Shown here: piece after piece, positions 852-51,500 of the stretch
Numbering within the stretch: position 1 is the stretch's first letter
Layout of the letters: every line of letters begins with the position of its first letter
Virus record (IMG/VR): IMGVR_UViG_3300020048_000007
Span: 167,673 to 231,672 of that record
DNA: 64,000 bases
Reading direction: 5' to 3' (one strand)
DNA from: a virus
Taxonomy: Duplodnaviria > Caudoviricetes
Notes under the pieces: generated by a model
What the model saw: the letters and a program-made list of their open reading frames with translations, nothing else
The model's database searches: none
What the model was told of the DNA's origin: nothing
Program-made: the position numbers and the translations under genes

Positions 852-1162
852 GTGCAATATTTCTGCTTCTTGGTCTGTATAGCAAGTAGAACCGCTTGTG
901 CTCTCATCTCCGCAAGAGTCAACGCCGTGCATTGATCTATCATCTCATCTTCTGTGAAATACAACACAGCACCATTAATGAGAGATGTCCTGTCGCCATA
1001 TAGTGATGGGGCCAATGGCTGACTTGCAGACGCTTGAATTGTATAAACCCAAACATTATTGATGAACGACATTGACGATACTTTTACTGGCTCTAGGAAA
1101 CCAAGAGCTGCAGACTCGCGAAGGTAAACGACATCACCTGGATTGTATTTTGGGCCTGTCAT
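848..1162 (-). CDS. hypothetical protein
   Basis: 104-aa ORF translationally coupled by 4-bp overlaps to recA and the helicase. Confidence 0.7.
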   Translation of the reverse strand: MTGPKYNPGDVVYLRESAALGFLEPVKVSSMSFINNVWVYTIQASASQPLAPSLYGDRTSLINGAVLYFTEDEMIDQCTALTLAEMRAQAVLLAIQTKKQKYCT

Positions 1163-2292
1163 TCTGAACCTCCATCAAGGATTCCATCGTCTAAACCATC
1201 TTCATCTAATGTTTCTTCGATATTAATAGCGAAGTTTTGACGTTTCTGTATATCGCCAAACATCGCTTTATACGTTCGATCTTTAATCTCATTCATAATG
1301 GCTTCATTAGAACGGACATTTTGAATAGTATTATTGATGCCATTACCAACGTGGGTTTCCCCAAAATAGTAGTTGCTTCCACGTTTAGTAAAGACTTTTG
1401 CTACCTTCTCTGAAATTTCAATCAGGCTAGCTACTTCGTCGATACCGAATATCGGTCTAACATCTTTTCCTACGCATATATCGTATTCAGCTTCCAGAAA
1501 TGGCGCTGCGACCTTGTTTTTTACGACCTTCGATCTCGTCCTAAATGCGATTATATCGTCTTTATCTTTAATGGGCGCGACCTTTTTGATTTCCATGCGA
1601 ATTGAAGCATAGAATTTTAGAGCACGACCACCAGGCGTATGCTCTGGATTACCAAACATTTGACCGACTTTTTCACGCAACTGATTGATGAAGATAATGG
1701 TAGTCTTTGTATTATTGCACTTTCCTCTGATCTTTCCGAGACCTTTGCCCATCAGCTGAGCTAAGGCACCCATATTAGCGTCGCTTATATCACCCTCAAG
1801 AATAGATCTCGGTACTAAAGCAGCGACAGAATCGACGACCACTAGATCCACAAGCCCAGAATCAACGATGCGTTCTATGATTTGGAAGCCTTCTTCGCCA
1901 CTATCCGGCTGCGAAATTATGAGGTTATCCGTGTTGACACCTATCTTTTTAGCCCATTGGATATCAAGGGCATGCTCAGCATCTATGAAGGCTACAACGC
2001 CGTTTCTTTTTTTGTCTTTAAAATAGTAGTTTTGGCATGCTTTCGTAATCTGCAAGCATGTTGTGGTTTTTCCACCTGACTCTGGCCCATATATTTCTAT
2101 TATTCTACCTAGCGGCAAGCCACCGCATCCTAACGCGTAGTCTATTGATGCTACTTGCGTTGAGAACACTTGTACGTTGACTATTGATCCGTTTCCCTGT
2201 GCAATAGAGCCACTACCGAAGTCTTTTTCAATTGATTGCAGCAAATCATTTAGATTTGTGCTCTTTATTATCGTCTTCTTTTCCTTGGCCAT
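1159..2292 (-). CDS. recA: RecA recombinase
   Basis: GGLPLGRIIEIYGPESGGKTT, FIDAEHALD, SQPDSGEE, VVDSVAALVP, FINQLREKVG, GGRALKFYAS and VVKNKVAAPF are all canonical bacterial RecA motifs; acidic C-terminal tail. Confidence 0.97.
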   Translation of the reverse strand: MAKEKKTIIKSTNLNDLLQSIEKDFGSGSIAQGNGSIVNVQVFSTQVASIDYALGCGGLPLGRIIEIYGPESGGKTTTCLQITKACQNYYFKDKKRNGVVAFIDAEHALDIQWAKKIGVNTDNLIISQPDSGEEGFQIIERIVDSGLVDLVVVDSVAALVPRSILEGDISDANMGALAQLMGKGLGKIRGKCNNTKTTIIFINQLREKVGQMFGNPEHTPGGRALKFYASIRMEIKKVAPIKDKDDIIAFRTRSKVVKNKVAAPFLEAEYDICVGKDVRPIFGIDEVASLIEISEKVAKVFTKRGSNYYFGETHVGNGINNTIQNVRSNEAIMNEIKDRTYKAMFGDIQKRQNFAINIEETLDEDGLDDGILDGGSE

Positions 2293-2551
2293 CTCTTAGG
2301 TTTCCTAGCATTGAGTATATTTGTGACATGGTTTTGTCATAGTCTAAGACCTTTAACACATCTTTTGCTGGTAATCGTATTGTTATGGGGCCTTTGGTCA
2401 ATACAAGATCGTGCTCCACAACTCCAGCGACCAGCCAATCACCATCTGTTGTGGGCTTGTCTATAGGGGATGAAATATAAGATAGGTTCTTAATAGTAAG
2501 TAACCTGACTCTATCAAGTCTTCCTATACGTTCTAGTGACTCTTGTGCCAT
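2246..2551 (-). CDS. hypothetical protein
   Basis: Track ORF 2246..2605. The likely start is ATG 2551 (MAQESL), which avoids overlap with the divergent + gene. Confidence 0.6.
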   Translation of the reverse strand: MAQESLERIGRLDRVRLLTIKNLSYISSPIDKPTTDGDWLVAGVVEHDLVLTKGPITIRLPAKDVLKVLDYDKTMSQIYSMLGNLRDGQGKEDDNKEHKSK

Positions 2552-2568
2552 GGCAAATTTATCTTTAG

Positions 2569-3129
2569 ATGGAGGGTTCAATGCCGATGAGCAGTAAACT
2601 GACAAAGAATGAGAAAATGCTTGTTGAAGCTATCAACAGCATGTTTGATCTGGACGCGCAAGTAGGTCTCGCCTTCCATGACAAAAAAGATCTCGAACCG
2701 CATAATGAAGAACGCGGATACGAATACTTACACAACCAAATAGATGATATGTTCGCACTCAAAGCAGCAGAGCTCATCCATGCCGATAGCGTGAATCAGG
2801 CATTCCACAAAGTACACAGCTACAAATATCTAGATGACCCCACATTTCCAACTGCAATGGAAAAAGAATTGGTTGCACAAGCCGTGCCAGCAGAAGAACG
2901 AGCCAAAGCAGTTGCCGCCATAACCAGCATCATCAAAGAGCTAAGGAAAGAACAAAAAAACTGGGCTGAAAAAGACTACGGTTTCAACCCACACATGGAC
3001 GAAATCGAAAAAGTATCAAAACCAGAACAACCACTAGATTTTAAAATCCATGATAAAGATGGATATAACGAAGCCAACGTGGACTGGGACAAAGAAGACT
3101 TTAAACCGGGTCGAACCCCAGACGCATGA
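2569..3129 (+). CDS. hypothetical protein
   Basis: 186-aa charged ORF. A GGAGGG RBS suggests the true start is 2581 or 2587. ATGA overlap with the next gene. Confidence 0.7.
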   Translation: MEGSMPMSSKLTKNEKMLVEAINSMFDLDAQVGLAFHDKKDLEPHNEERGYEYLHNQIDDMFALKAAELIHADSVNQAFHKVHSYKYLDDPTFPTAMEKELVAQAVPAEERAKAVAAITSIIKELRKEQKNWAEKDYGFNPHMDEIEKVSKPEQPLDFKIHDKDGYNEANVDWDKEDFKPGRTPDA

Positions 3130-3368
3130 AAATCAGGCAGATATACGAAAACCTCCTGAACCAAAAATTGCGAGAACTATCGCAAGATACCGGCTTCTTC
3201 CAAAGACCAGCCGTTAACAGCATACCATTATACGATGCCGAACGTGGCTTTGATTCCGACTCAAGAGCCACATCCAACACGACCGGCAAAAAAGGTATTC
3301 CCACATCTAAACGGCACAGAAAATTCTTCAATATAAGCATCGGGCCAGAAGAAATGTCTGTTCAGTAA
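3126..3368 (+). CDS. hypothetical protein
   Basis: 80-aa ORF coupled to the previous gene; N-terminus MKIRQIYENLLNQKLRE. Confidence 0.55.
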   Translation: MKIRQIYENLLNQKLRELSQDTGFFQRPAVNSIPLYDAERGFDSDSRATSNTTGKKGIPTSKRHRKFFNISIGPEEMSVQ

Positions 3369-4123
3369 ACAGAAATAATACCTGAACCCTGACACTTAGG
3401 ACAAACAATATCCTGATTCATGTTCCTAATACTGCCAGCTTCATGGCAGAGAGGACATGATTTCATAGAATCCTTATAACCAGATTTAAAATCTGGACTC
3501 TTACCACTAATAGAATCCTCAGCCATACGTTTAAACCGATTCTGCAAATGCTGATCATTCTCGCGCTTCGAAATCTTAATCCTTGTAGTGCCGGTGCCGT
3601 CTACCCTTCTCTCCGGAATCGCAATCGGAACGCCCTCCCGCCCCTCCATCATCGTGATTTTAGCCTGTCCCTTAAGTAAACTAGGGTCAAGCTTATCCTT
3701 AGAAGAGCTAGCCTGAAAGCTAGAAAAAGACTCAACTCCGCCACCACCAACAGACTGCATCATCTTATTATCAATGAAATCAGTCGTAACGATATCATCA
3801 CCTTCCATAGGCAAAAAAGCCTGATTCTGAGGAGCATTATATTGTGGTTGAGGCTGCTGAACCACCGGTGCTGCAGGAGCATGAACTACCGACAAATTAT
3901 TACCAGGATTTACTGAAATATTCAATCCCAACAACTTAGCTTGAGCCAAAAACTCATCGATCTGCTTCTGTCGATTAGTATATGCAATACGAGCACTCTT
4001 GATAGTCGCATCTTCCGCATGCTCATCACATATAACGACGGTTGTCCTCTCACCACCATCTAATGTGATTTGAAGCGTAGTATTTAAATTTTCAGAAGCG
4101 CCACAGTAAACACAAGTGCTCAT
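3362..4123 (-). CDS. zinc-binding hypothetical protein
   Basis: N-terminal CVYC...CDEH; C-terminal CPLCHEAG...CPKCQGSG (DnaJ-like CxxCxGxG); P/Q-rich linker. Confidence 0.7.
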   Translation of the reverse strand: MSTCVYCGASENLNTTLQITLDGGERTTVVICDEHAEDATIKSARIAYTNRQKQIDEFLAQAKLLGLNISVNPGNNLSVVHAPAAPVVQQPQPQYNAPQNQAFLPMEGDDIVTTDFIDNKMMQSVGGGGVESFSSFQASSSKDKLDPSLLKGQAKITMMEGREGVPIAIPERRVDGTGTTRIKISKRENDQHLQNRFKRMAEDSISGKSPDFKSGYKDSMKSCPLCHEAGSIRNMNQDIVCPKCQGSGIISVY

Positions 4124-4137
4124 AGAAGATCCTCATC

Positions 4138-4539
4138 ATGAAAACGCGATTCATCGTTATACCCGTCAACCTAGGCATCAATATTGATGATATTATAAGT
4201 ACAGATCTAACTGATCTGACAACAGAATCGAGATCCGAATTAGATAAAGCACTCAACATAGCAAAAGCAGTACAAAGCGTCAAAATAGAAAAAACCAAAC
4301 AAAAAGAAGAAAAAACCACCAAGCTACAAAAAAACATAATAGCCCTATACGAAGCAATTAAAAACGCAAACACAACAGGCGTATCATCAAAAGACATAAA
4401 AACAATACTAAACGACGAATCAGCAAACCTAAGCACACTGACACCAAAGCTACGGACATACCTGAAAGAACAAGACCCTGAATATGAATTAGAAAAAGTA
4501 ACAAGAGCAGGAACAGTATACTATCGCTTCTCTAAATAG
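4138..4539 (+). CDS. hypothetical protein
   Basis: 133-aa basic ORF with a coiled-coil-like middle and a possible winged-helix-like C-terminus. Confidence 0.65.
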   Translation: MKTRFIVIPVNLGINIDDIISTDLTDLTTESRSELDKALNIAKAVQSVKIEKTKQKEEKTTKLQKNIIALYEAIKNANTTGVSSKDIKTILNDESANLSTLTPKLRTYLKEQDPEYELEKVTRAGTVYYRFSK

Positions 4540-5461: not shown

Positions 5462-5910
5462 TCTTCCACCAAATCCTCATCAAAATTGATACCAAGGTCA
5501 CTCTTCGGAAGCTTCTTACCAGAACCATAATCTATGAAGTCACCGCCAAACACAGCCTTCCTCTTATCAACATCAACCGGCTTATTGAAGCCAACCAAAG
5601 GATTAAAAGCATGATCTATGAGATCAGACAAGCTCATAATATTGGCTCTAATAGGATCTATAAAAGGAAAAACTGGTTTCGGTCTCAGACTCTCACACTG
5701 CTCACAGACACATTCACCAGACATTCTATACTCAATACCAGCACCGCACGCAGGACAAGTCAACAGTACCTTAGTAGGTCTTACAAGATCACCAAACGCA
5801 TCTAAAGACTTTCGGTGATCCACTATGTTACCACTAAACTCAAAAGGTCTTGCATAGACCTTTACTCCATAGATATCGACTTCGACTAAATCGTACGGAT
5901 TATAACTCAC
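5458..5910 (-). CDS. zinc-ribbon hypothetical protein
   Basis: CPAC...CVCEQC; overlapping stop/start with neighbours. Confidence 0.65.
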   Translation of the reverse strand: MSYNPYDLVEVDIYGVKVYARPFEFSGNIVDHRKSLDAFGDLVRPTKVLLTCPACGAGIEYRMSGECVCEQCESLRPKPVFPFIDPIRANIMSLSDLIDHAFNPLVGFNKPVDVDKRKAVFGGDFIDYGSGKKLPKSDLGINFDEDLVEE

Positions 5911-6449
5911 GATGAACTAGACCAGGATGATTCAACAGGTACGTTTTGTTTAGAAACCCAGTAATGATATCTATCTTGACAAATACTTATTTCAAGGTCT
6001 CTAGAAGATGCTTCGACTGAAGCATTCTTCCTAAAATCAACTCCACCACAAACGCACACATTCTTAGAAATGCTATTTCTCCCACATTTTAAGCACACAT
6101 ATGGCTGTTTAGACATATTTACAGAAACTTTCCCGAAGACAGCATAATAATAAGCATCTGACAACACAAGATCTACACCTGTTAAACCACAAAAATGCTT
6201 CACAATGCCAGTCCTATTGTTCATACTAGAAGTATAAACATTAACGACTTCATCAGAAACACTTTCATAGCATGCGGCACAAAAGTCAAATGACTTCTCC
6301 GGTTTTTGCTGCAGTATATCTGTTATAGGTGGTCTCCTACCGCCATACTGCTTTACCTTCATCACATTCACACTATAATAATCAAAGTCTTCCTTATTCG
6401 TCGCTTTGCATATATCACATATTATTCCGGTTTGATCTTGCGTTTGCAT
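5907..6449 (-). CDS. Cys-rich hypothetical protein
   Basis: CDIC, CAAC, CLKC and CVCGG motifs; same operon as the DnaE C-terminal gene. Confidence 0.7.
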   Translation of the reverse strand: MQTQDQTGIICDICKATNKEDFDYYSVNVMKVKQYGGRRPPITDILQQKPEKSFDFCAACYESVSDEVVNVYTSSMNNRTGIVKHFCGLTGVDLVLSDAYYYAVFGKVSVNMSKQPYVCLKCGRNSISKNVCVCGGVDFRKNASVEASSRDLEISICQDRYHYWVSKQNVPVESSWSSSS

Positions 6450-9141
6450 CGGACTTTCTCTTAAGTTTCGATATCTTCTGACGTCTACTTACACAAAACA
6501 TACCCCTAGCATCGAAATCAACAGGAATATGAATTCCAATGCCAGGTTCAAAACACGCCTCATCCTGCATCATTAATTCCTTCTCCCATACAAACACCAT
6601 ACAATCAGCAATCCCATCAGTACCAAAAATCTTACCATAAGGTTTACCTGTCTTAGTCATATCCCTAACGAATTTGCTTGTATACAAATGTAAAAAATTG
6701 TTTCCTTCCTCCTTAGAAGCGCGATCCTTAGAAGCAGCTATGGTTCCATCACCGGTTATCTTATAAGAACCAAGCGGAGAATCAAGGTAATACCCAATAT
6801 ACTCCTGCTGGAAAGCTAATCTTTCTTCTAAAGTAAAATCGTCTAAAGTCACTTTATTAATATTTTCTAAAGTTACTTCGATTTTCGGCATCCATTTCGT
6901 TATCGCTGGTGGGATCTTATTACGTTTAGGATAGGCGCGGCGATACTCTTGCTCTTGGCGATCACGCTCCTTGGCAATCGTCTTCTCATCCCATCCTTCT
7001 AGAGCCATAAGGTCATTGTGAAGTTGCACTTTCATCTCTCTAATGTCTTTATTCACAGAGCAGTAAAAATACTGATAATACTTCCATAAAGCACGGCTGT
7101 TCTGATGTCCAGGCAATTGCTGGAAAGCATTTAACTTGATAAATCTTTCCAAAACAGGTTTACTCCTCCGGCCAGAATCTTCACCACCGACAAATTCATC
7201 AAGCGATTTATAATCACCCTTTCCAGTAAAAACCAAAGCGGCTGAATCACCAATGCCTTTAATACCAATCATGCCCTGATTAATACTGTCGCCAGATACC
7301 TTGAATCCACGCTGAAGATTATTTATATCAATAGTACCGAAGTGAACACCCTCGGCTGGAATGGCTGGTTTATGGCTCCCACTGTATGTGATTACCGACG
7401 GCTTCCATTCTTCAGACCTAGCCATGCCCATATATCTAGGCAACTTCTTGGCGTGGCAATCACTCATAATAGCAGCCCAAAACTCAGGTGCAAAGTGCGC
7501 CTTCAACCACAAGCATCTCATAGTCAGCAGGCAGTAACTCACACTATGTGATTTATTAAATGCATACCTGCCGAATGTTTCCATCTTCTCCCACCAGTAC
7601 GCAGCAGCTTCCTCACCAATAGACTTACCAGCACCTTCAAGCCATTTGGTCTTAATCGGCTTTAATTTGTGTGTCCACTTCTTAGCCACGGCCTTCCGAG
7701 CATCCTGTGATTCAGGACTAGTGAAAGCAGCAAGCCTCTGCCATAGTGCCTGTAACTGTTCTTGGTAAACAATAACCCCATAGGTGGACTCAAGAACAGA
7801 TAAAAACTCTGGGTGCAACTTCTCTTTCCATTTATTAAGACTATCATCGCGGTTAGCCATAGCCTCAGGAATTGATTGCATAGGACCTGGGTGGCCCATG
7901 GCATTTAAAAGCATTAAGTCTTCGAAAGACTTCACACCATGTTCTAAGATCCCTTTGCCATTATCTGTATCAAATTGAAATATGCCATCAGTCTTCTTAT
8001 CGTTCGCAAGCTTCAAAGCTGCTGGATCATCCATGTTTATAAAATGTTTTTCCCCGCTCTGATCGAAATAAAAGCCGATTATCCTTTGCTCTGGATCATT
8101 ATAATCCATTCCCTCCAGATTATCACCAAACGAAATCCCGCGATTTTCTTCGATAAACTTGCATGCCTCGAATAGGTACTTCACAGTCTTTAAACCAAGT
8201 AGATCCCATTTGACATAACCGAATTTGCTCAGCTGAGTGGTTCTTCCCTCGGTCCACATGCTTACCCAAAAGCCCTTCTTACCACTTTTCGCCATTGGAA
8301 CGTTCCCAAACAATGGCCTGTCAGTAATAATCAGAGCTCCCGCGTGCATCCCCTGATTCCTAATGCGGCCAACTAGCTGCTTGGCGTAGTCAACGACATT
8401 CGGGTGTATACGATATAATTCAGCAAGCTCTTTTACTTCTGCTAAGAGCTTACCAATGGTCGGGGCCTCAGTATCTGTCTGATTACAAAAAGGGCATATT
8501 TTCGCATCATGCACCTTTCCGCAATCTTGTTCAGCCCCTTCAATGATGATTCTACTTTTACAAACGGAAAACCCGCCTTCTCTCAGATCGTCGACTTCAT
8601 CAGGCATCTCAGTGGTGAAACGCTCTGCCTCATATCGTGTCATAACACCAAGTGCCGTAGACACGTCTAAAATCGCACTTCTTAACTTGTAGGTCTGCCA
8701 GGTCCCAACAGAGCAAACACTGCCATAAACATCATCGACGTTACTCCCATAACGCTGAATCGCATATTCCTTCAAAGGATCTCTAGATTCTGGGATACAA
8801 TCGATATCGATATCTGGCATGTCAGTATCTTTAGTGATATCTTCAGGATAATACCCATACTTGTTCTTGTAACTCATAACACTAGAAGCCGCAATGGAAT
8901 TAAGCATCGGCGTGGTCCGCTCATAGAACGGATCATCATCAGAAACACCCAACAGATACGCTATGAGAAGCCTATTTGGGTTTTTAAGCCCCTTTTGATC
9001 AGATTCAGCAACACGTATCCAGTATGCTTCTGTACCCTGTTTTTCAATCTCTGATATTTCAAACATCAATCTATCAACATACGTGCTGCCTAATGCTTTA
9101 CCTTTAGGTATTAACGTTTCTTTCATATCATTCCAGGTCAT
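6415..9141 (-). CDS. dnaE: DNA polymerase III alpha (family C), C-terminal/catalytic fragment
   Basis: MPDIDID catalytic motif, GRIRNQGMHAGALII, KWDLLGL, GIFQFD, TYGVIVYQEQ, ARKAVAKK, FGRYAFNKSHSVSY, FAPEFWAAIM, GIKGIG and an OB-fold remnant (QQEYIGYYL...GKPYGKIFG). No PHP domain. Confidence 0.95.
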   Translation of the reverse strand: MTWNDMKETLIPKGKALGSTYVDRLMFEISEIEKQGTEAYWIRVAESDQKGLKNPNRLLIAYLLGVSDDDPFYERTTPMLNSIAASSVMSYKNKYGYYPEDITKDTDMPDIDIDCIPESRDPLKEYAIQRYGSNVDDVYGSVCSVGTWQTYKLRSAILDVSTALGVMTRYEAERFTTEMPDEVDDLREGGFSVCKSRIIIEGAEQDCGKVHDAKICPFCNQTDTEAPTIGKLLAEVKELAELYRIHPNVVDYAKQLVGRIRNQGMHAGALIITDRPLFGNVPMAKSGKKGFWVSMWTEGRTTQLSKFGYVKWDLLGLKTVKYLFEACKFIEENRGISFGDNLEGMDYNDPEQRIIGFYFDQSGEKHFINMDDPAALKLANDKKTDGIFQFDTDNGKGILEHGVKSFEDLMLLNAMGHPGPMQSIPEAMANRDDSLNKWKEKLHPEFLSVLESTYGVIVYQEQLQALWQRLAAFTSPESQDARKAVAKKWTHKLKPIKTKWLEGAGKSIGEEAAAYWWEKMETFGRYAFNKSHSVSYCLLTMRCLWLKAHFAPEFWAAIMSDCHAKKLPRYMGMARSEEWKPSVITYSGSHKPAIPAEGVHFGTIDINNLQRGFKVSGDSINQGMIGIKGIGDSAALVFTGKGDYKSLDEFVGGEDSGRRSKPVLERFIKLNAFQQLPGHQNSRALWKYYQYFYCSVNKDIREMKVQLHNDLMALEGWDEKTIAKERDRQEQEYRRAYPKRNKIPPAITKWMPKIEVTLENINKVTLDDFTLEERLAFQQEYIGYYLDSPLGSYKITGDGTIAASKDRASKEEGNNFLHLYTSKFVRDMTKTGKPYGKIFGTDGIADCMVFVWEKELMMQDEACFEPGIGIHIPVDFDARGMFCVSRRQKISKLKRKSDANARSNRNNM

Positions 9142-9797
9142 ACATCTTCCTTTATCTGGATCTGATGGGCTGATTTGATGTGGTTTGTTAGGCCATAGCT
9201 GCTAATTGTCTTCTTACCACAGATGTGGCAAGCATATACAGTACCGTCAGTAGAAATCGGCTTAGCTTTGCAAGTTTTAGCATGCAAAGTATAACCAGAC
9301 ATGGAAGACATAATTTTTCCACAATTAGCACATTTCATGCCATCATTGCCTATAGCACACCCTATCATTTTCGATAATGGCTTTTCTCTATCCATTTCAT
9401 AACAAAGATCTGGTGGTCGCCATTCTTTATTCGATGGCCTGCCTGTAACCCAGCTCTCATGAATAGGAAGGCTCATTGAGTCTAAGTTAGCATCACTATC
9501 AGCGTATAGTATAGCATCAACTGCCCTTATTTTAACGTAGTATAATGGTCTTCCGTCTTTCACACAAGCTTTTAAGACGTCTTTGTACGCTTTATCATCT
9601 AACTCTATAATTTTCGATATCGTGGTTTTGTGAAGTATCAAGCCTCTATATTCTTCATATTTAAAATCGCTTTTTGCCCAGTATGGCCTTAATGATAGTA
9701 AAATGAGTATCTCTTTTAGACTCTTTTCTTCTCCATTAACATAGGTCTTATTGTTTTCTTCAGTGATTTTATAACCTTTGGGGTTCAAGTCTCGCAT
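9138..9797 (-). CDS. protein with two C-terminal C2H2/C2HC zinc fingers
   Basis: CANC-x12-H-x3-C and YACHIC-x12-H-x4-H; ATGA overlap with the DnaE-C start. Confidence 0.75.
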   Translation of the reverse strand: MRDLNPKGYKITEENNKTYVNGEEKSLKEILILLSLRPYWAKSDFKYEEYRGLILHKTTISKIIELDDKAYKDVLKACVKDGRPLYYVKIRAVDAILYADSDANLDSMSLPIHESWVTGRPSNKEWRPPDLCYEMDREKPLSKMIGCAIGNDGMKCANCGKIMSSMSGYTLHAKTCKAKPISTDGTVYACHICGKKTISSYGLTNHIKSAHQIQIKEDV

Positions 9798-10125
9798 TGT
9801 ATTTGTATTCTTGGTTTAGAGCAGCTGTTTTTGCCATATCTAACATTGAAATACAATCAGCACCCCACGTTATATCTGTTAAATCGATTCTTAGGTCGTT
9901 AGGATTATCAACGTTATATCTAATAGTAATATATGCATCTTTGTGCTTTAAAGCAGATTTAGCTAATTTAAAGCTCTTATAAATGTAATCTCCAGAGCCT
10001 AAACCTGATGTTATTACACATTCATTTTGGCTCTGGAGATGTTTTAGTCTGATAGCACAGCCATAAGAAGGTATCTTATCTTCGATGCATGCTATGCAGA
10101 TCTCGATATCATATAAATGAGCCAT
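9769..10125 (-). CDS. hypothetical protein (possible degenerate RNase H-like fold)
   Basis: The pattern YDIEICIAC...SYGCAIRL...ITSGLG...LAKSALK...ITIRY loosely follows RNase HI secondary-structure order but lacks the acidic catalytic residues. Confidence 0.5.
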   Translation of the reverse strand: MAHLYDIEICIACIEDKIPSYGCAIRLKHLQSQNECVITSGLGSGDYIYKSFKLAKSALKHKDAYITIRYNVDNPNDLRIDLTDITWGADCISMLDMAKTAALNQEYKYNARLEPQRL

Positions 10126-10633
10126 CGACAGCCACTAGCTTAGGATATTGGGAGCCCGTCTCAACCGCGAATGCATCGAGAGTACGAGCCACAGCATTTA
10201 AGACATGGTTTTTTGCAGCTATCTTATCGCTAGAACTACGCCACTTACCTATTTCGACAAGAACATTATCAGCTAGTTGCTTAACATTCGAAGGAAATTC
10301 TTTTCCTTCTGATTGATAATTGCTGACATAGCTATCGATGATTCCGGTCACGTATAATGCAGCTGATTCTGTGATATTGTAAGACAAATGGCTTATTTCT
10401 CTGTCTTTACGCTCTTGATTTGTATCTGTGATAAAGTCAATTAGCTTGAGCAAATAAGCACAAAGCTGATCACTAACGCCATTCATTATCACTATGTGCG
10501 TTCTGACAGCGTGCTTAAGCTCTTCGACCTGAGCATTGCGCCTGTCGCTATAATCTTCTTCAATGCCAGTTCTTATATCCGCTGGTGCCAAAGCCGTTGG
10601 CATGCTAACAGACTGCATTCTTGGATCGTTCAT
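10109..10633 (-). CDS. hypothetical protein
   Basis: 174-aa helical ORF with a GGAGG RBS (10638-10642 on the - strand). Confidence 0.7.
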   Translation of the reverse strand: MNDPRMQSVSMPTALAPADIRTGIEEDYSDRRNAQVEELKHAVRTHIVIMNGVSDQLCAYLLKLIDFITDTNQERKDREISHLSYNITESAALYVTGIIDSYVSNYQSEGKEFPSNVKQLADNVLVEIGKWRSSSDKIAAKNHVLNAVARTLDAFAVETGSQYPKLVAVDGSFI

Positions 10634-10672
10634 AGGTACCTCCTGCCATATTTACTTGCTACCTGCAAAAAA

Positions 10673-12067
10673 TCACTTAAATTCGGGTAGTTTTACATTC
10701 AGCAAATAGCCACCACGACTCGGACTCAAGAATCTGTCGAATGACAAACCCCATTTAAGCGGGTCAATGCTAGAGATTCCAAGCAGATAGCAAACCAAAC
10801 TCCCTGGAGCACTACCACGAGGATAAAACGGAAATCCTAGAGACCTCCCATGATCTATTAGGTCATATGTTATTAAAAAATAACTGCTAAAACCCTTCTC
10901 GATGAACCGAGTAAGTTCTATTCTGGCTTGCTCTGCATACGTCACAAGCTTGCCATCAACCGGGAACTTAGTCTTCACCTTATCTAAACCAAGTTCTTTG
11001 AGTCTCTTCGTCGCAATACGAATCAATTCTTGGTCTGACTGATCGACAGACGGAATCTTGGGCGTGGAGTCTACATTTAATTTAGAACATCTATTAGCGA
11101 TTTCTAGAGTATTATCACAAGCTTTCTGGAAAAACCCATCATCGATACCTTTGCTATAGCCATTATCAGTAAATCTCTCATGTAATTCCTCTCGGGTCTT
11201 CATGTACTGCTCATCACTATTAACGTGAAAAAGATCAGGGCTATCAACGGTTGTCTCCTGTGAAATAGCCATCATGATCTTCTGTAATATAAAATCCTTG
11301 CGGTGCATATAATGACAATCATTCGTGATCACCGACGGTACCTTGTAATGATCAGCAAGTTCAACCTGCCACCGAAAGACCTTCTCATCATTCTCGACCC
11401 CAGGCATTTGTAACTCCATAAAATAATCTTCGCCAAATGCGTCTTTGAATTTTTTTATATAAGCTGCGGCATCCCTAAAACACTCCTTAGAGCTTCTCTC
11501 CCAGACCACATTGTCCTCTTTATCCTTAATACTTCTGAATCTAAGCTCATGACTAACTGGTCCGTTTAAGCATCCAGAAAGAATGATTAATCCCTCTTTG
11601 TACTCACAAAGCTTCTCAAACCATATCCTGTTATACTGTGTAGTACCAAGTCCGAACAATCCTGTATCATAAGCCTGAGTAGTGAGCTTTATAAGGTTCT
11701 CGACACCAGTCTGATTCTTACATACGACAGTTAAATGCCTGTTCCGGAACATCCTTGCAGCGAGCTCTTGATTTTCTTTGCGCCATTCTGGAGATCGATA
11801 TTTAACACCATCCGCGTGCATTTTCTGTCTTAGCGGCTCATAATCATTATAATATATCTCACAACCGACTATACTCTTTAGACCGTATTGTTGAAACGCG
11901 ATGTACATGTCAGGGACACTACCCATATGACCATGCTCCGTAGCAGCCATAGCCGGATATCCAAGATTATGACACCTCTCGGCATATTGCTGCGGAGACG
12001 ATACCCCATCAAGAAAGCTGAAAATAGTATGAGCATGGAGATGGACAAAAGGAGCGTGCGATTGCAT
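10673..12067 (-). CDS. dnaE: DNA polymerase III alpha, N-terminal fragment (PHP domain + start of palm)
   Basis: FVHLHAHTIFSFLDG, ATEHGHM, IVGCEIY, RHLTV, LSGCLNG, TNDCHY and SDEQYMKT, then RGSAPGSLVCYLLGIS.IDP and FDRFLSPSR. It ends just before the PDxDxD motif, which is in the other gene. Confidence 0.95.
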   Translation of the reverse strand: MQSHAPFVHLHAHTIFSFLDGVSSPQQYAERCHNLGYPAMAATEHGHMGSVPDMYIAFQQYGLKSIVGCEIYYNDYEPLRQKMHADGVKYRSPEWRKENQELAARMFRNRHLTVVCKNQTGVENLIKLTTQAYDTGLFGLGTTQYNRIWFEKLCEYKEGLIILSGCLNGPVSHELRFRSIKDKEDNVVWERSSKECFRDAAAYIKKFKDAFGEDYFMELQMPGVENDEKVFRWQVELADHYKVPSVITNDCHYMHRKDFILQKIMMAISQETTVDSPDLFHVNSDEQYMKTREELHERFTDNGYSKGIDDGFFQKACDNTLEIANRCSKLNVDSTPKIPSVDQSDQELIRIATKRLKELGLDKVKTKFPVDGKLVTYAEQARIELTRFIEKGFSSYFLITYDLIDHGRSLGFPFYPRGSAPGSLVCYLLGISSIDPLKWGLSFDRFLSPSRGGYLLNVKLPEFK

Positions 12068-12147
12068 AGAAATGATCGTATCCCTAGTATCAATATTTTA
12101 TGACTATCAGAAAAACACAGGTACGCATAGATGAAATTCACCTATAT

Positions 12148-13848
12148 TCATTTTTTATCCCCGTCCTGTAAGGCATCCATAAACCATGATGGAAACAGCC
12201 TACCACTTCTCTTAATGAACCCGACAAAGCTCCCATCAATGATATAAGTGTCAGCGTAATCCTCAGGACCACGAATAGATCTACCGTACGATTGAACCAG
12301 CTTTAAAGCTGTTAGCCAAGGAATATAAGCCGGATCAAGCTGGTTACGCCTGTTAAGCTGCTTATTATCAAAAAAATTCGGAAAAGGCACCTTGCTAATG
12401 ACCTGAAACCGACTCAAATCACCATTCAAGTCGACACCCTCATGCATAGCAGGAGCAACAAGAATACTGCCAGGTCTGCGAGCATGCAGCTCCAGTAACT
12501 CCTTCTTGTCAGGAAACATCCTCTGAGTGATAAATCTGTGCCTACTTTGGCAACCATCGTAGAGAGCATCAAGAATAGCAAAATTGTGTGTATGAATCAT
12601 ACCACGTTCATCCGGATATCGATCACATATCTCATCAACAACATCTATCACCTTAGGCATCCACTCATTCATGCGGCTCTTACCACCTGTAAGATTACCA
12701 CAATCCTTGAAATAGATCGGACGATTCTCTACAGGGAACCTATTCTTCATCCTGTATGACGCAATCTGATCCTTTTCAAGACCCAAAGCATTACAAAAGA
12801 CATTGATATCAAGAATTGTAGCGCTCATAATAAGCACCTTGTCAGCGAACCTGAAAAGCATCTTATCAGCGTAATCCCGAATGAAAACAGGCTTAAATTC
12901 GACCGAAAATTCCTTGCTCCTCTCAGCATACGTAGTCTGACATACCCACTCAGAATCTTCGAATGTCTCCAGGAACTGAATGACCCGTTTAACAAGCTTA
13001 CTCAAATCGTCCTCAGTCTTGTGATCCTCTCTGCGTTTAGCATCTTCGATCGCAAGAGCAATGACTTCAGCGATACGTTCTTCTTTACACCATTCAAAAT
13101 AATCTCGCGGATCTTCATACTTCGGCAAAATAACACCGAAATCCTTAAAAGTATCACTCGCAAACACAAACGACACAACGTCGAGCAAAACCTGCTCAAT
13201 ATTATGACCCTCATCGATAATCAACAGATCTCTCGGCATATCAAACCTACGAGTCATCATAGTCTGATAAATGAAGCTATTGAAATTCATACAAACGACA
13301 GGACCATTAACAGACTTAAAGACCTGCTCGTAATAAGCACATGCGCTGTACACCTTACCAGCCGGAAGATGATTCAAGTCGCCCTTCGGGACACCCGGGA
13401 TCTGATCCCTCAAGAAACACCCAGAGCATTTGTGACCGTCTTTGCGTCCTACCTTCGATTTGCAATACCCAGCTGCACAATCCGGCTTCTCATCAATCTT
13501 CTCATCGAGCCTATCAAGCGGGATAATTTTTGCGAGCTTATCCCTGTTTCTCTCATAATAGTCGCAGTGATACGCATTCCTACCTTTGAGTTCTACAACC
13601 TTATCGCCAAAATCATTCATGAACTGATCTTGAAGAATCTTCGTGATTGTGAGATAGTACGAGCTTTCAGCCATATTAGCCATCGTCATACCGATAGCTG
13701 ATTTACCCGAGCCGGTAGGGCATTCGAGAATCACGACCTTCTTACCCTCATTGAACTGCTTACAAGCAAATTCAATGGCCTTCTTTTGGCCATCACGAAA
13801 TTCAGCCTTGGGGAAACAGTCGTCAATTCTGTCTAGATCATATTGCAT
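12148..13848 (-). CDS. dinG: DinG/XPD(Rad3)-family SF2 helicase, probable Fe-S cluster
   Basis: Q motif FRDGQ, CPTGSGKS, LKGRNAYHC, a Cys cluster, IIDEGH, MSAT, HEGVDL, KVPFPN and QSYGRSIR. Confidence 0.9.
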   Translation of the reverse strand: MQYDLDRIDDCFPKAEFRDGQKKAIEFACKQFNEGKKVVILECPTGSGKSAIGMTMANMAESSYYLTITKILQDQFMNDFGDKVVELKGRNAYHCDYYERNRDKLAKIIPLDRLDEKIDEKPDCAAGYCKSKVGRKDGHKCSGCFLRDQIPGVPKGDLNHLPAGKVYSACAYYEQVFKSVNGPVVCMNFNSFIYQTMMTRRFDMPRDLLIIDEGHNIEQVLLDVVSFVFASDTFKDFGVILPKYEDPRDYFEWCKEERIAEVIALAIEDAKRREDHKTEDDLSKLVKRVIQFLETFEDSEWVCQTTYAERSKEFSVEFKPVFIRDYADKMLFRFADKVLIMSATILDINVFCNALGLEKDQIASYRMKNRFPVENRPIYFKDCGNLTGGKSRMNEWMPKVIDVVDEICDRYPDERGMIHTHNFAILDALYDGCQSRHRFITQRMFPDKKELLELHARRPGSILVAPAMHEGVDLNGDLSRFQVISKVPFPNFFDNKQLNRRNQLDPAYIPWLTALKLVQSYGRSIRGPEDYADTYIIDGSFVGFIKRSGRLFPSWFMDALQDGDKK

Positions 13849-45588: not shown

Positions 45589-45978
45589 ATGATACACGAT
45601 CATCTAATGGAAGCAATCAGGCAAGACGCCGACCTATTGACTAAATCCGATGCGTGGCTCGAAGAAGAGAAGAATTACTTCACAGAGCAGATGCGCAAAT
45701 CCATAGAAGAGCTCAAACCCATCCTCTTAGCTATAGCTATAAAACAGAAATTGCAGCAGCAGAACATGGTGCCTAGGCAGAAGTTCATAAGAGGCAGCAC
45801 AGGCCAGATAGAGAACGTTGTGATTGACTTCTGTAAGCTACCAGAAGCACTGAGAGATATGCTCAATAACGGCAGAGATACCTTAGATCAGTTGATAGCA
45901 GCTGGCAATATTGCCACATGGCAAATAGACGGGTATGACGTTAATACCTGCCTCCAAACGGTACCGAAAGGGATATAA
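45589..45978 (+). CDS. hypothetical protein
   Basis: 129 aa; TAATG stop/start overlap with the PurZ-like gene. Confidence 0.7.
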   Translation: MIHDHLMEAIRQDADLLTKSDAWLEEEKNYFTEQMRKSIEELKPILLAIAIKQKLQQQNMVPRQKFIRGSTGQIENVVIDFCKLPEALRDMLNNGRDTLDQLIAAGNIATWQIDGYDVNTCLQTVPKGI

Positions 45979-47078
45979 TGCAAAACGGCAAGCTCAATAT
46001 AGTCACAGACGGACAACACGGTAGCACAGGCAAGGGTCTAATCAACGCATATCTAGCCGATAAACACCGACCAGAAATACTCAGCACGACCAATATGGCC
46101 AACGCTGGCCACACCGCAGTCAACGAAAACGGCGAACCGTTCATAGCAAAAGCATTACCGTCATCAGCGGTCCTAAACAAATGGCGAGAGGGCTATAAAC
46201 CGACAGTATTCGTAGGAGCTTCATCTGCTTTTGATCTGCAACAGCTACTAAAAGAATGGAAAGAATGCGACAAGCCATTCACATTAATCCACCAGAGAGC
46301 TGGTGTCATTACACAAGAGCAAAAAGAAAGAGAATCCGGAGCATCAGGCACAAAGCACGTTGCTAGCACCATGCAAGGATGTGGAGCATTTCTAGCAGAT
46401 AAAGTCATGCGAAAAGCAGATTTAAAACTCGCTAGAGATTATGAAGAGCTTCAGCAATTCATGGCCATCAAAGAAGCACATACATGGCTAAAGGCACAGC
46501 TCGAAAGCTACGGTACAATTCTCCATGAAGGAAGCCAAGGATTCAGCTTAGATATAAGCCACGGTAGTCACTATCCAGAGTGTACAAGCCGCAGCACCAC
46601 TGCTATTCAAAACCTTGCTGATCTTGGTCTTAACCACAAGCAAGTTGGTGATGTGTACGTGGTTTTCCGGCCATACCCGATCAGAGTCGGCAATGTCTAT
46701 GAAAATGGGGTAGAAGTAGGCAACAGCGGTGGTTGCTACGGCGACAACCAAGAGACTACTTGGGAAGCAATAGCCGATGCTGCAGGTGCACCGCCAGAGA
46801 TTAAAGCCAAGGAGCTTACAACTGTCACAAAGCGACTTCGAAGGGTCTTCACGTTTAGTATGCAGCAAATCACCGAAGCTGCTGCAGCTAACGGTGCATC
46901 ATATCTTGCGCTGAATTTTGCTAACTATATTGACTGGACTTGCTATGGCACCAACGACAAGGCAAAATTGTCAAGCAAGATTTGGGAATTCATTCATTCA
47001 GTACAAGAGCAAACAGGCGTCAAGGTGGGGCTTGTTGGTACGGGTCCTCAGATAAACCACGTAATTGACCTAAGATGA
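45978..47078 (+). CDS. purZ: adenylosuccinate synthetase homologue with PurZ (2-amino-dAMP-succinate synthase) signatures
   Basis: DGQHGSTGKG (Ser at the PurA Asp13 position), NAGHT, ASTMQGCG, EGSQG, YPECTSR, RPYPIRVGN, SGGCY, TTVTKRLRRVFTFS and LNFANY (in place of the PurA TKLD/TMLD GTP-specificity motif). Confidence 0.8.
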   Translation: MQNGKLNIVTDGQHGSTGKGLINAYLADKHRPEILSTTNMANAGHTAVNENGEPFIAKALPSSAVLNKWREGYKPTVFVGASSAFDLQQLLKEWKECDKPFTLIHQRAGVITQEQKERESGASGTKHVASTMQGCGAFLADKVMRKADLKLARDYEELQQFMAIKEAHTWLKAQLESYGTILHEGSQGFSLDISHGSHYPECTSRSTTAIQNLADLGLNHKQVGDVYVVFRPYPIRVGNVYENGVEVGNSGGCYGDNQETTWEAIADAAGAPPEIKAKELTTVTKRLRRVFTFSMQQITEAAAANGASYLALNFANYIDWTCYGTNDKAKLSSKIWEFIHSVQEQTGVKVGLVGTGPQINHVIDLR

Positions 47079-48524: not shown

Positions 48525-51500
48525 ATGGCAACAGATCCGTTTGCGAATATAGGTTTTAGGGAAAACTTCTCCCAAGCTTACTACACAGAAATAATTATAG
48601 CTAGGAATAAAAAAAGCATAAGATTTGCTTCTTCCACTCCTACAGTAACCAACAGCTACCGTCAACTGATGGGTGGTAATTTATACAGAGTAGCGGAGTT
48701 ACTAAGTATAACAGGACCAAAACAGCCCGTAGCCATAGAAAACAAACTACAATATAAAAAAGACCAACCATATTCCCTCTACGATCAAGGCCAAATAAGC
48801 GACGAATTCAGAATACAGAACGTCGACCCTACCCTCTCGTTAGAAAACAGAGAAAGCTACTGGGCTAGAGTGAGCAGCCCATTAGGGAGAGAGTGGGCTG
48901 CCTACTACGCCGGAACAGATGCCAAAATAGGCTACATCGCGAATTTTATTGACAGAAATTTAGATGACTTCACGGGCACGAATTTTGCAGGATTTGTATC
49001 TGGAACACTTAATAATGACAACGATAAGCCCAACCTATATGACACTGTTAAGATAGGAAACATATTCGGCTCCACAGTTCAAGGAAGCCAAACTGCATCT
49101 GTGTCTGTTGAGCCAGGCATGTACAAGAGCTTCATCTCGTGCAAAGTCACACAAGACACGAGATATTTTGACCCCACAGGCGCAGAAATAATTCAAACTG
49201 CTGAATCAGGTGATTTATTCGCCGACGAGTTCGTGTTAAACTTTTATATATTCCCAGGTTATCACACATTTTATTATGGCTCTTGGAAGATAACAATCGA
49301 GCCGACTAATACGACAGGAACGCATAGGGTATTCATCCAGCATGCCAGATATTATGCCTCTGCTGAATACAATATGCAGCCAATAGTGAGGAAATTTAGT
49401 GCAGACTTTGATTGGGATGGGACTTTAAGCGAGTTTAATCTTATTACTATTAAATACCTATTCACTCCAAGACCTCAGGGGAGTGCGTCGACTGGCACAA
49501 TTAACATTGGTACTTCTACTAGTAAAGTAAGTCTATTTGTTAATGCTGTTCCTGTCTTCGCAAGTGGTAGTGATTCGATATGGCCCCCATCTTATCCAAA
49601 AGTCTACCGTGGCTCAAGCGGTGCGGGATTGCCTAGTTATACACAGAAACCATATATTGACCTAAAGATGGCCCCAGATAACACGCCTGTCTTCATAGTA
49701 TGGGATAATGCAGTACCTTTCGGAATCACAAAAAGCGAATTCGCATTTATTCTTATAACTGACAAGCTGGTGGATCTTAAAGGTCTTTACACTCACCTTA
49801 TTAGATTCGAAAGGATAATGCCTAATCTCACAATTGAGACGACCCCTAACCCAGTTGTTCCTCCAACACCCCCAGTAGGCGGTATTACTTCGAAATTTTA
49901 CAACAGGGCTACTTATAGTCTTGCCCCAGCGGTATTGATGGAATTAAACAAGATACTCTTAGACTTCATGCTGTCCCAGCCAAATATTAGAATCTCTAGC
50001 GGACCACTAGAATCAGACCCGATTCTCAATAGGATGATGGCTACTGCAAGTACCACCAAAAAATATTCGTCAGCGATAGAATACGACAAAAACGTTTTAG
50101 ATCTCTTAAGAGAGCCAATTTTGGTTATAGATGATACGAATTCGCTATTGCCATATTATTTGCTAGAGTATGGGTTACCTAATGAGAACGTCGGGCGACT
50201 TCGAGTTAGAATAACAGAGATAAAATCACCAAATGTAATCGATGAAGTATCATCAGAAATTGAACTACAGGGCTACGCAGAGTACATTGTTAAAACCATT
50301 ACCACAGACAGCTGGACAGCTGGCACGGTGACGTTGTCTTCGATTTTTAGATTCTTGGTCGATGATAGTGGAATGTACGAGCCAAAATTAGATCCGTATG
50401 TCGTCAACAATCCTAATCAGCTTAGTCTTAATGAGTTTGGACAAGTATATGTTGAGAGTATGCGTGTTACTTGGGCTTTTCCAAGGGACGTGAACAGTCC
50501 TTTTGTTATTCCAGATAGCTTTTTTACTAGGTATAACAGGGTGGTGGATGTAGTAACCCAGGAAGTAGAAATAGCACAGCTCTTTGATACGGAGAGAGAC
50601 TTATTACCAAATGGGTTGCCGGTCGATCTGAATATGTCTAATAAGCCGGGCACGACCCCTCCAATATCACCACCTAACCCTGGAACAACTCCAACACTAT
50701 ATTATAATCGAGCTGAATGGAGCATACTGCCTGCTAAGGTAGCGGAAATAGAAGAGGTCATCAAAGATTTTATGACCAGTAGAGAAGTTATTAAATCGGC
50801 TGGGGAAGATTTTTATTTGGTGATGCAGAACGCCCTGTTGACCGATAATAGAGTGGTCAAGACATTCGAACTTGGTATAGGGATTGATCCGCACTCAGAA
50901 GAAGGAATCCTTGATGTAGTCGACACTCCTCTTGCCACTAGCACAGATGTAGAAATATTCTATACACCAAAGGATGCACTTGGAATTCCAAACAGCAAAG
51001 ATTATGCGATAAGGTTATCCGCCAAAATACCATTAAATGAACCTAACAGGAATCTTTCTGAAGTAGTCTTAAAAAGCTCTGCTACATATCGTTTTGATAT
51101 ACCATCTAATTTTGACAATCCAGATGGTGATTTGTCTGAATATGGTGCTGGGCAATTTAATATTACCCTTGATTTTCTTATTATTCAGAATGATGTTGCG
51201 AGACCAATTAATAGTGATAAAAACCCGTATATCGTCGGTAACAATGGTGAATTCGAACTTGACTCAGCTTACAGAATGGGTGCAGTGACCGCGACTGTTG
51301 TTGCTACTTTCGGTTCTGATACTGGTTTCTTTGAGGACTATCTATTAGATTATAATCCAATTGAAAGCAATCAGTTCGGGGCTGGAACTTTAGTGGACAT
51401 AACGCCCTTCATTACTGGTGGCGTTCCAGTTTCCATAAATATGTCAAATGCTCCAGGCACAGTTGGAATTGGTGTGCCAGGCGGCACGCCGTTACCACCA

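Follow-up and report, generated by a model that had tools for sequence, protein, structure and literature searches.

The subject of this study is a pair of genes, A and B, in a 64,000-nucleotide stretch of phage DNA (hereafter the window) that forms the final 64 kb of the 231.7-kb IMG/VR virus record IMGVR_UViG_3300020048_000007 (CheckV completeness, about 64%). The two genes lie 1.5 kb apart on the minus strand, and together they quite probably encode a single family-C (DnaE-type) DNA polymerase, made of two subunits, in an uncultured jumbo phage from fresh water. DNA nearly identical to the window is present in many freshwater and lake metagenomes, and a megablast search of positions 6000-12500 against GenBank phages gave no match. 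A preliminary description of the locus had been made from the sequence alone. The coordinates, strand and motifs that it gave for A and B were found to be correct in every checkable detail of the open reading frames (ORFs), Pfam matches and motif positions. The features of the two genes are as follows (dNTP, deoxynucleoside triphosphate).

10673..12067, minus strand: gene A, 464 amino acids; PHP domain and N-terminal (dNTP-binding) part of the DnaE palm; an ORF of its own
11408..12043, minus strand: PHP domain of A, Pfam match at amino acids 9-220; D250 and H252, the last ligands, lie beyond it
10676..11002, minus strand: palm fragment of A, amino acids 356-464, by conservation and by alignment to M. 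tuberculosis DnaE1 (5lew) up to ...FLNPER
6415..9141, minus strand: gene B, 908 amino acids; apparent diverged copy of the N-terminal palm, catalytic palm, thumb with a Cys4 insert, fingers, HhH and OB-like C-terminus; no PHP
8827..9141, minus strand: B amino acids 1-105, apparent diverged second copy of the terminal palm segment of A, by sequence comparison; without the RGS and Arg residues
8800..8814, minus strand: D110-I-D112-I-D114 of B with the two metal-binding Asp residues, aligned to T. aquaticus D463 and D465; invariant
8485..8562, minus strand: Cys4 of B (C194, C207, C216, C219), between the DxD strand and the third-Asp strand; invariant
8203..8211, minus strand: K311-W-D313 of B (in KWDLLGL), third catalytic Asp and conserved Lys, by alignment and family conservation
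7627..8043, minus strand: fingers domain of B, amino acids 367-505 (Pfam PF17657, E value 1.7e-27)
7102..7347, minus strand: HhH domain of B, amino acids 599-680 (Pfam PF14579, HHH_6; 28.2 bits against a cut-off of 25.6)

Gene A matches PHP (PF02811) at residues 9-220 (E value 2e-34) and DNA_pol3_alpha at residues 356-451, where only positions 3-98 of the 260-position profile are covered. It contains RGSAPGS at 417-423 and FDRFLSPSR at 443-451, ends in ...LNVKLPEFK, and aligns with M. tuberculosis DnaE1 through GRGSAAGS...FERFLNPER. In gene B, positions 8-260 of the same DNA_pol3_alpha profile are aligned to residues 3-316. PDIDID lies at 109-114 and KWDLLGL at 311-317; TDMPDIDIDC aligns with VSMPDIDTDF of T. 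aquaticus, which contains D463 and D465, and KWDLLGL aligns with the strand bearing the third Asp. The longer profiles are divided between the two genes: phrog_405 covers A with positions 43-439 and B with 440-1010, and NCBIfam PRK05673 covers A with 3-398 and B, from residue 107, with 400-1062. The OB fold that had been assigned to B is borne out in so far as full-length NCBIfam models align up to its C-terminus (to position 1062 of 1146 and 1022 of 1022), though the last 218 amino acids alone gave no Pfam domain match.

Conservation follows the same division. Nine of nine PHP ligand positions of A (H11, H13, D20, H45, E70, H111, C166, D250 and H252) are invariant in 68 sequences; I take these residues to be the metal ligands from the PHP motifs. 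Since all metal ligands are kept, the PHP domain of A is likely a proofreading exonuclease of the DnaE1 type. The GS motif and conserved Arg residues of DnaE hold the incoming dNTP. The GS motif and the dNTP-type Arg residues were found in gene A only, not in B; R417, G418, S419, G422, S423, R445 and R451 are invariant in the palm of A, and a conserved tail (G452, G453, L456) follows before the stop codon. The invariant residues of the B family include D110, D112, K311 and D313, so that the Asp triad is carried by B alone. Of the elements noted earlier in each gene, RGS and both Arg residues of FDRFLSPSR in A and the three catalytic Asp residues in B are invariant in their families. A had also been described as a separable proofreading PHP subunit, but its most conserved part is the palm fragment with the RGS and Arg residues.

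Jointly, A and B carry the PHP domain, the palm with three catalytic Asp residues, the dNTP-binding GS/Arg motif, the fingers and the HhH domain, spread over two polypeptides rather than placed on one as in single-chain DnaE. Single-chain DnaE proteins (E. coli 2HNH and 5FKU; T. aquaticus 2HPI and 3E0D; M. tuberculosis DnaE1 5LEW) and unsplit phage DnaE proteins of about 1095 amino acids share the domain order and the catalytic and dNTP motifs with A and B. In contrast to them, A and B are two polypeptides; A ends in a conserved tail of 12 amino acids, and B begins with about 105 additional residues and has the Cys4 insert, which is probably a zinc ribbon and is lacking in the single-chain structures aligned here.

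Conservation of the split

The window derives from a metagenome assembly, and a split gene in it might reflect a misassembly or a pseudogene in decay. In run X3, which belongs to another study, one contig spans positions 6300-12200 unbroken and with the identical structure (66 differences, no gaps), and further runs bridge the A/i1 and i3/B junctions (i1 to i3 being the genes between A and B). Inside B, 33 of the 35 listed strain differences are at third codon positions. A and B are under purifying selection, and their catalytic residues are invariant. With hundreds of protein clusters of the same sizes coming from several data sources, an error or a pseudogene is hardly conceivable.

The family of A comprises 635 proteins of 255-812 amino acids (E value of 1e-10 or below). 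The best 120 of these are all 444-502 amino acids in length, with 61-94% identity, and A-family proteins sit on contigs of up to 438 kb. The B family is as large as the A family, and PHP occurs in none of its 120 listed members. The same split was looked for in relatives, as had been suggested. An IMG/VR pattern search with A alone gave no matches, and a search with the A family alignment matched 580 stretches, and the 80 best loci among them were retained. Thirty-one of them form a clade with an A at 41-68% identity; the other 49, an outgroup, are at about 30% identity. In all 31 clade loci, A stops as a gene of its own (three of these ORFs are longer through inserts), and in 30 of the 31 the core of B follows on the same strand, 1031-4411 nucleotides past the stop codon of A. 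The outgroup loci mostly have a single ORF of about 1095 amino acids, and mostly lie on smaller contigs. From the independent contig, the third-position variation, the family sizes and the clade loci, it is concluded that the split is real, is ancient and has become fixed in this giant-phage clade, and that it is neither an artefact nor a pseudogene.

A duplicated palm segment and the intervening genes

The preliminary description implied a clean cut between A and B. However, the two genes overlap rather than abut when they are compared with unsplit phage DnaE sequences: their tblastn footprints share about 80 amino acids (in MT836081, 9429-10628 for A and 10389-12077 for B). The first 105 or so amino acids of B look like a diverged copy of the last 80 or so of A (residues 370-452). 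The pair is LIAYLLGVSDDDP in B and LVCYLLGISSIDP in A. Residues 370-437 of A are 32% identical to the B of one clade locus, L005 (E value 0.002), and hhalign supports the relationship of the palm segment of A and the head of B with an E value of 0.004. When the members of the B-head alignment were searched against Pfam, only 5 of 64 touched PF07733 (best E value 0.027). In three deeper-branching loci (L033, L034 and L040), the head segment is shorter and reads ...GLVLPYLLGITxVDPI...PDIDIDF. These heads alone match positions 6-89 of PF07733, with E values of 7e-4, 5e-3 and 2e-3, and no other family was matched. These members appear to settle the duplicate origin of the B head reasonably well.

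The copy in B has NPN where A has RGSAGGS, and the Arg residues are absent from it throughout the family. It has invariant residues of its own: R24, F27, E28, E31, K34, Q35, G36, L58 and P71. In three further deep-branching loci, the palm copy is a free-standing ORF of 131-152 amino acids (L029:12084-12542, L035:4864-5259 and L037:12286-12711), which sits between the small genes and the catalytic piece. Judging from the ORFs, DnaE appears to be in three pieces in these loci. The duplicated segment of B probably matters for assembly.

Three small genes lie between A and B. They are coupled, as had been noted: a gap of 39 nucleotides separates A from i1, and overlaps of 17, 29 and 4 nucleotides follow down to B. 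Their positions, with those of two ORFs from other loci discussed below, are as follows.

10109..10633, minus strand: i1, 174 amino acids; helical-bundle protein
9769..10125, minus strand: i2, 118 amino acids
9138..9797, minus strand: i3, 219 amino acids; C-terminal C2H2 zinc finger (Pfam zf-C2H2, E value 1.5e-6, 28.8 bits)
L034:11858-12274 and L029:11753-12145: F1 members with a weak RNase_H match, at the same position as i2 of the window

These genes had been called unrelated, but BLAST clustering of the intervening ORFs of the window and of 35 related loci with both genes revealed two gene families conserved between A and B across the clade. A helical protein like i1 follows A: its cluster F2 is found in 20 loci, and clusters F4 and F7 take the same position in 9 more. 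Cluster F1, a protein of 125-165 amino acids, is found in 25 loci. Cluster F3, a zinc-finger protein including the i3 family, is found in 17 loci, directly upstream of B. Two F1 members match RNase_H weakly (E values 3e-5 and 2e-4, just under the cut-off), and the usual first Asp is absent from them; possibly, the F1 protein has a degenerate nuclease fold and acts as a partner of the polymerase. The i2 gene of the window occupies the place of F1, an assignment by position and not by homology. The structural model of i1 is a confident four-helix-type bundle (predicted local distance difference test score, pLDDT, 90.5); it had no match in the PDB at an E value of 0.001 or below, and the Atlas gave no usable match. 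The intervening genes have long accompanied the split gene and are not a mobile insert of recent date.

Assembly of the two products

The products of A and B might be joined after all, by an intron, trans-splicing, a cryptic intein or ribosomal bypass. Cyanobacterial DnaE is reunited by a split intein, 'fractured' DnaE genes with a split intein and a homing endonuclease are known (Dassa et al. 2009, PMC2677866), and in relatives of the window phage, B is interrupted at another site, near residue 530, by inteins or by breaks like those of split inteins. The A/B junction differs from these in its site and in having neither intein halves nor an endonuclease gene. Pfam gave no match to Hint/intein families in A or B, and none even at E values of up to 10 in the last 134 amino acids of A or the first 105 of B, in agreement with the earlier remark that the ends have no intein motifs. 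An Rfam scan of positions 5800-12600 (E value of 1 or below) matched no family and no intron, and i1, i2 and i3 match no endonuclease family in Pfam, PHROGs or NCBIfam. The tail of A past the homologous region is only 12 amino acids in length, and the 105-residue head of B, which is conserved as protein from about residue 3, is like palm, not intein. From one to at least five ORFs, conserved as proteins, lie between the pieces. Later joining is very improbable on this evidence; most likely, the products of A and B are never joined covalently.

Apart from the A/B junction, an apparent insertion site was found within B. At about window position 7551, some 1.9 kb of additional DNA is present in a near-identical strain (run X5, record 11); the site is 7549-7554, between residues 530 and 531 of B (FNK|SHS). 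In L006, a DUF723 gene lies at the same residue and breaks B further, and in L010 a DUF723 gene follows about residue 437. Other B-family members have full inteins or intein fragments. The insert at residues 530/531 has the appearance of a mobile element of the 'fractured gene' type whose presence is polymorphic.

A complex of A with residues 1-520 of B was modelled from family alignments, together with three controls. The best of the three controls scored 0.00 and the pair 0.86, a mark that 58 of 80 solved complexes attain, as do 2 of 110 mismatched pairs; these counts are rough here, where custom alignments were used. The three runs share at least 95% of the contacts, and the pLDDT of the partner is at least 90. 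In the model, the interface includes residues 410-420 and 444-463 of A against 27-88 and 101-116 of B. The helix at 403-406 of A contacts the helix at 123-127 of B, just after the DxD strand, which in this model is the arrangement expected of a Pol-beta-like fold. PHP residues 123-131 of A contact 278-284 of B, and L456 in the tail of A contacts E31 and residue 102 of B; the pseudo-copy in B is thereby predicted to clamp the tail of A. In an AlphaFold2 model of B 1-520 alone, pLDDT is 75.8 and the predicted template modelling score 0.38, and pLDDT falls below 50 at 104-120, 135-148 and 262-317, around the catalytic strands. This poor definition, which is a matter of model confidence only, is suggestive of a dependence of B on A. 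By VIA-align, residue 1 of the B 1-520 model is placed at position 305-316 of solved DnaE in three DnaE-type rows, but at a root-mean-square deviation as high as 17-19 Å.

Four observations make assembly in trans the best reading: the conservation of the genes, the division of the catalytic residues over both, the lack of a detectable intein or intron and the pass of the complex model. The proposed course of events is as follows. An ancestral single-chain DnaE would have been cut inside its Pol-beta-like palm, so that the dNTP-binding part (RGS loop and FxRFLxPxR) was parted from the strand bearing the two metal-binding Asp residues. The cut would have been accompanied by a duplication of about 80 amino acids, whose copies then degenerated in complementary ways: the copy in A would have retained the dNTP-binding residues, and the one in B would have lost them and stayed conserved as a helical module. 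In the present enzyme, A would supply PHP (likely the proofreading exonuclease) and the triphosphate-binding half of the active site, and B the catalytic Asp triad, thumb, fingers, HhH and OB-like end. The association would be non-covalent, with the palm fragment of A in its canonical place beside the DxD strand of B, and the N-terminal pseudo-copy of B, predicted to pack on the conserved C-terminal tail of A, would be a docking module.

Several points weigh against this reading or parts of it. In one clade locus (L016, IMGVR_UViG_3300013121_000020, 354 kb), B is not within 10 kb of A, and adjacency is therefore not required. The check by complex modelling that the preliminary description proposed was passed, but the pass may reflect likeness to, or memory of, solved single-chain DnaE rather than binding. 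The sequence support for the duplicate is weak in the window phage itself: residues 1-105 of B alone gave no Pfam match at E values of up to 10, and the family profile of this segment, searched against PDB sequences, found no DnaE, only a spurious kinase match (E value 0.014). The remaining points concern the other polymerases of the phage: an unsplit third DnaE-like gene of 559 amino acids without PHP (C1:85913-87592; L001:487-2166, minus strand), a PolA-like ORF of 404 amino acids just upstream of the window, next to replication genes (C1:165108-165827), and the failure to find PolB (PF00136), DnaN or a gp45-type clamp in the 232 kb of this record (about 64% complete). As the genome has the unsplit mini-DnaE and the small PolA, A and B need not be the main replicase.

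As to the locus L016, a B-type protein of 687 amino acids (P0197) is recorded on a contig of 354,091 bases, probably that of L016. The halves can lie far apart.

Could A and B act separately? A would then be a PHP phosphoesterase or exonuclease with a vestigial palm stub, and B a self-sufficient (or inactive) polymerase completing the palm with its own copy. Stand-alone PHP proteins exist, B does have its own copy of the N-terminal palm helices, and A and B are not adjacent in L016. However, the copy in B is without the RGS and Arg residues across the family, and the palm fragment is what is most conserved in A, where invariant RGS and Arg residues would be pointless without the Asp triad. Moreover, A and B co-occur in 30 of the 31 loci, and the complex model sets the fragment of A against the DxD strand of B. 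Separate action is unlikely.

Role in replication and known split polymerases

Of the two-subunit replicase acting in trans that had been proposed, assembly is the best reading in silico, but the replicase role is not established, in view of the mini-DnaE and the small PolA. The mini-DnaE has RGSAS and PDIDLDF in one chain, and its best NCBIfam match is of the error-prone DnaE2 type (E value 4e-51, far below the cut-off). The PolA-like ORF has weak DNA_pol_A matches (E values 5e-7 and 3e-6). A and B might assemble and serve as an auxiliary polymerase (for repair, the lagging strand or a special nucleotide pool), main replication being left to one of these two proteins, to a polymerase in the missing third of the genome or to host Pol III. 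Iyer et al. proposed an auxiliary role for the split Pol III that they described (PMC7824862). However, A and B together are the sole polymerase with a proofreading-type domain, HhH and OB-like end in the sequence searched, no PolB was found there, and the two genes are located among replication and repair genes (helicase, SbcD-like nuclease and DNA ligase). An auxiliary role is rather unlikely on balance, and a replicase role of A and B is likely.

The split is not new in outline. Iyer et al. (2021, Viruses 13:63, PMC7824862) reported an intein-free, split 'minimal' Pol III alpha in the group 2.2 jumbo phages. It is cut between the NTP-binding subdomain at the N-terminus and the Mg- and template-binding subdomain at the C-terminus, and the authors expected the enzyme to be reconstituted. 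Compared by description, the subdomain boundary is the same: A ends after FxRFLxPxR, and the catalytic part of B starts from PDIDID. In other respects the two forms differ. The published form is a catalytic core only, without PHP or other Pol III domains, whereas A and B are full-size, with PHP, fingers, HhH and an OB-like end. The genes of the published form are widely separated, whereas A and B mostly lie at a distance of 1-4 kb from each other, with small conserved genes in the interval. That form accompanies a family-B polymerase, none of which was found in the 232 kb of the present record, and the duplicated segment in B is a further difference. No paper on a PHP-bearing split form with such a duplicated junction segment was found, within an incomplete coverage of the literature, and a 2026 survey of bacterial polymerases in Nucleic Acids Research makes no mention of an intein-free split DnaE.

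Other essential replication enzymes of phages are also found as two intein-free polypeptides. The family-B polymerase gp43 is split into 43A and 43B in Aeromonas phages 25 and 44RR, and NrdA is split in phage Aeh1 (PMC2988022). The 43A and 43B proteins of phage 25 are intein-free, co-purify and are active. They belong to a different polymerase family and fold from A and B; a homing endonuclease or an untranslated spacer goes with these splits, for which no duplicate has been reported. In Corynebacterium phage P1201, DnaE is annotated as adjacent overlapping ORFs, which is a different situation and possibly one of frameshifts.

The split form has persisted throughout a large clade of giant phages, freshwater and marine. 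If A and B are subunits of one enzyme, a family-C polymerase can withstand being cut through its nucleotidyltransferase core, with the dNTP-binding loop on one side and the metal-binding strand on the other. By its complementary decay, the duplicate would illustrate clearly, in a natural case, how a gene can be split through duplication and subfunctionalisation. A and B would also offer a natural, intein-free, two-piece DnaE for studying communication between PHP, the dNTP site and the catalytic site. A more extended proposal is tentative, although it is conceivable: fission by partial internal duplication would have made an obligate heterodimeric family-C replicase, in which the dead half-core copy became a built-in docking or assembly module, free-standing as a third subunit in some relatives, and the clade-conserved small proteins between the halves (the helical bundle and the RNase H-like protein that lacks the usual first Asp) would likewise belong to the enzyme as dedicated subunits. 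If true, this would be a phage-specific, Pol III-like holoenzyme without a cellular counterpart.

Elsewhere in the window, a single ORF of 4606 amino acids occupies positions 48525-62345 on the plus strand. A protein of 366 amino acids (45978-47078, plus strand) matches phrog_1211 (E value 3e-61), which is the PurZ-type adenylosuccinate synthetase homologue of phages with 2-aminoadenine (Z) genomes. Here, the phrog_1211 match co-occurs with DnaE-type, not DpoZ-type, polymerases.

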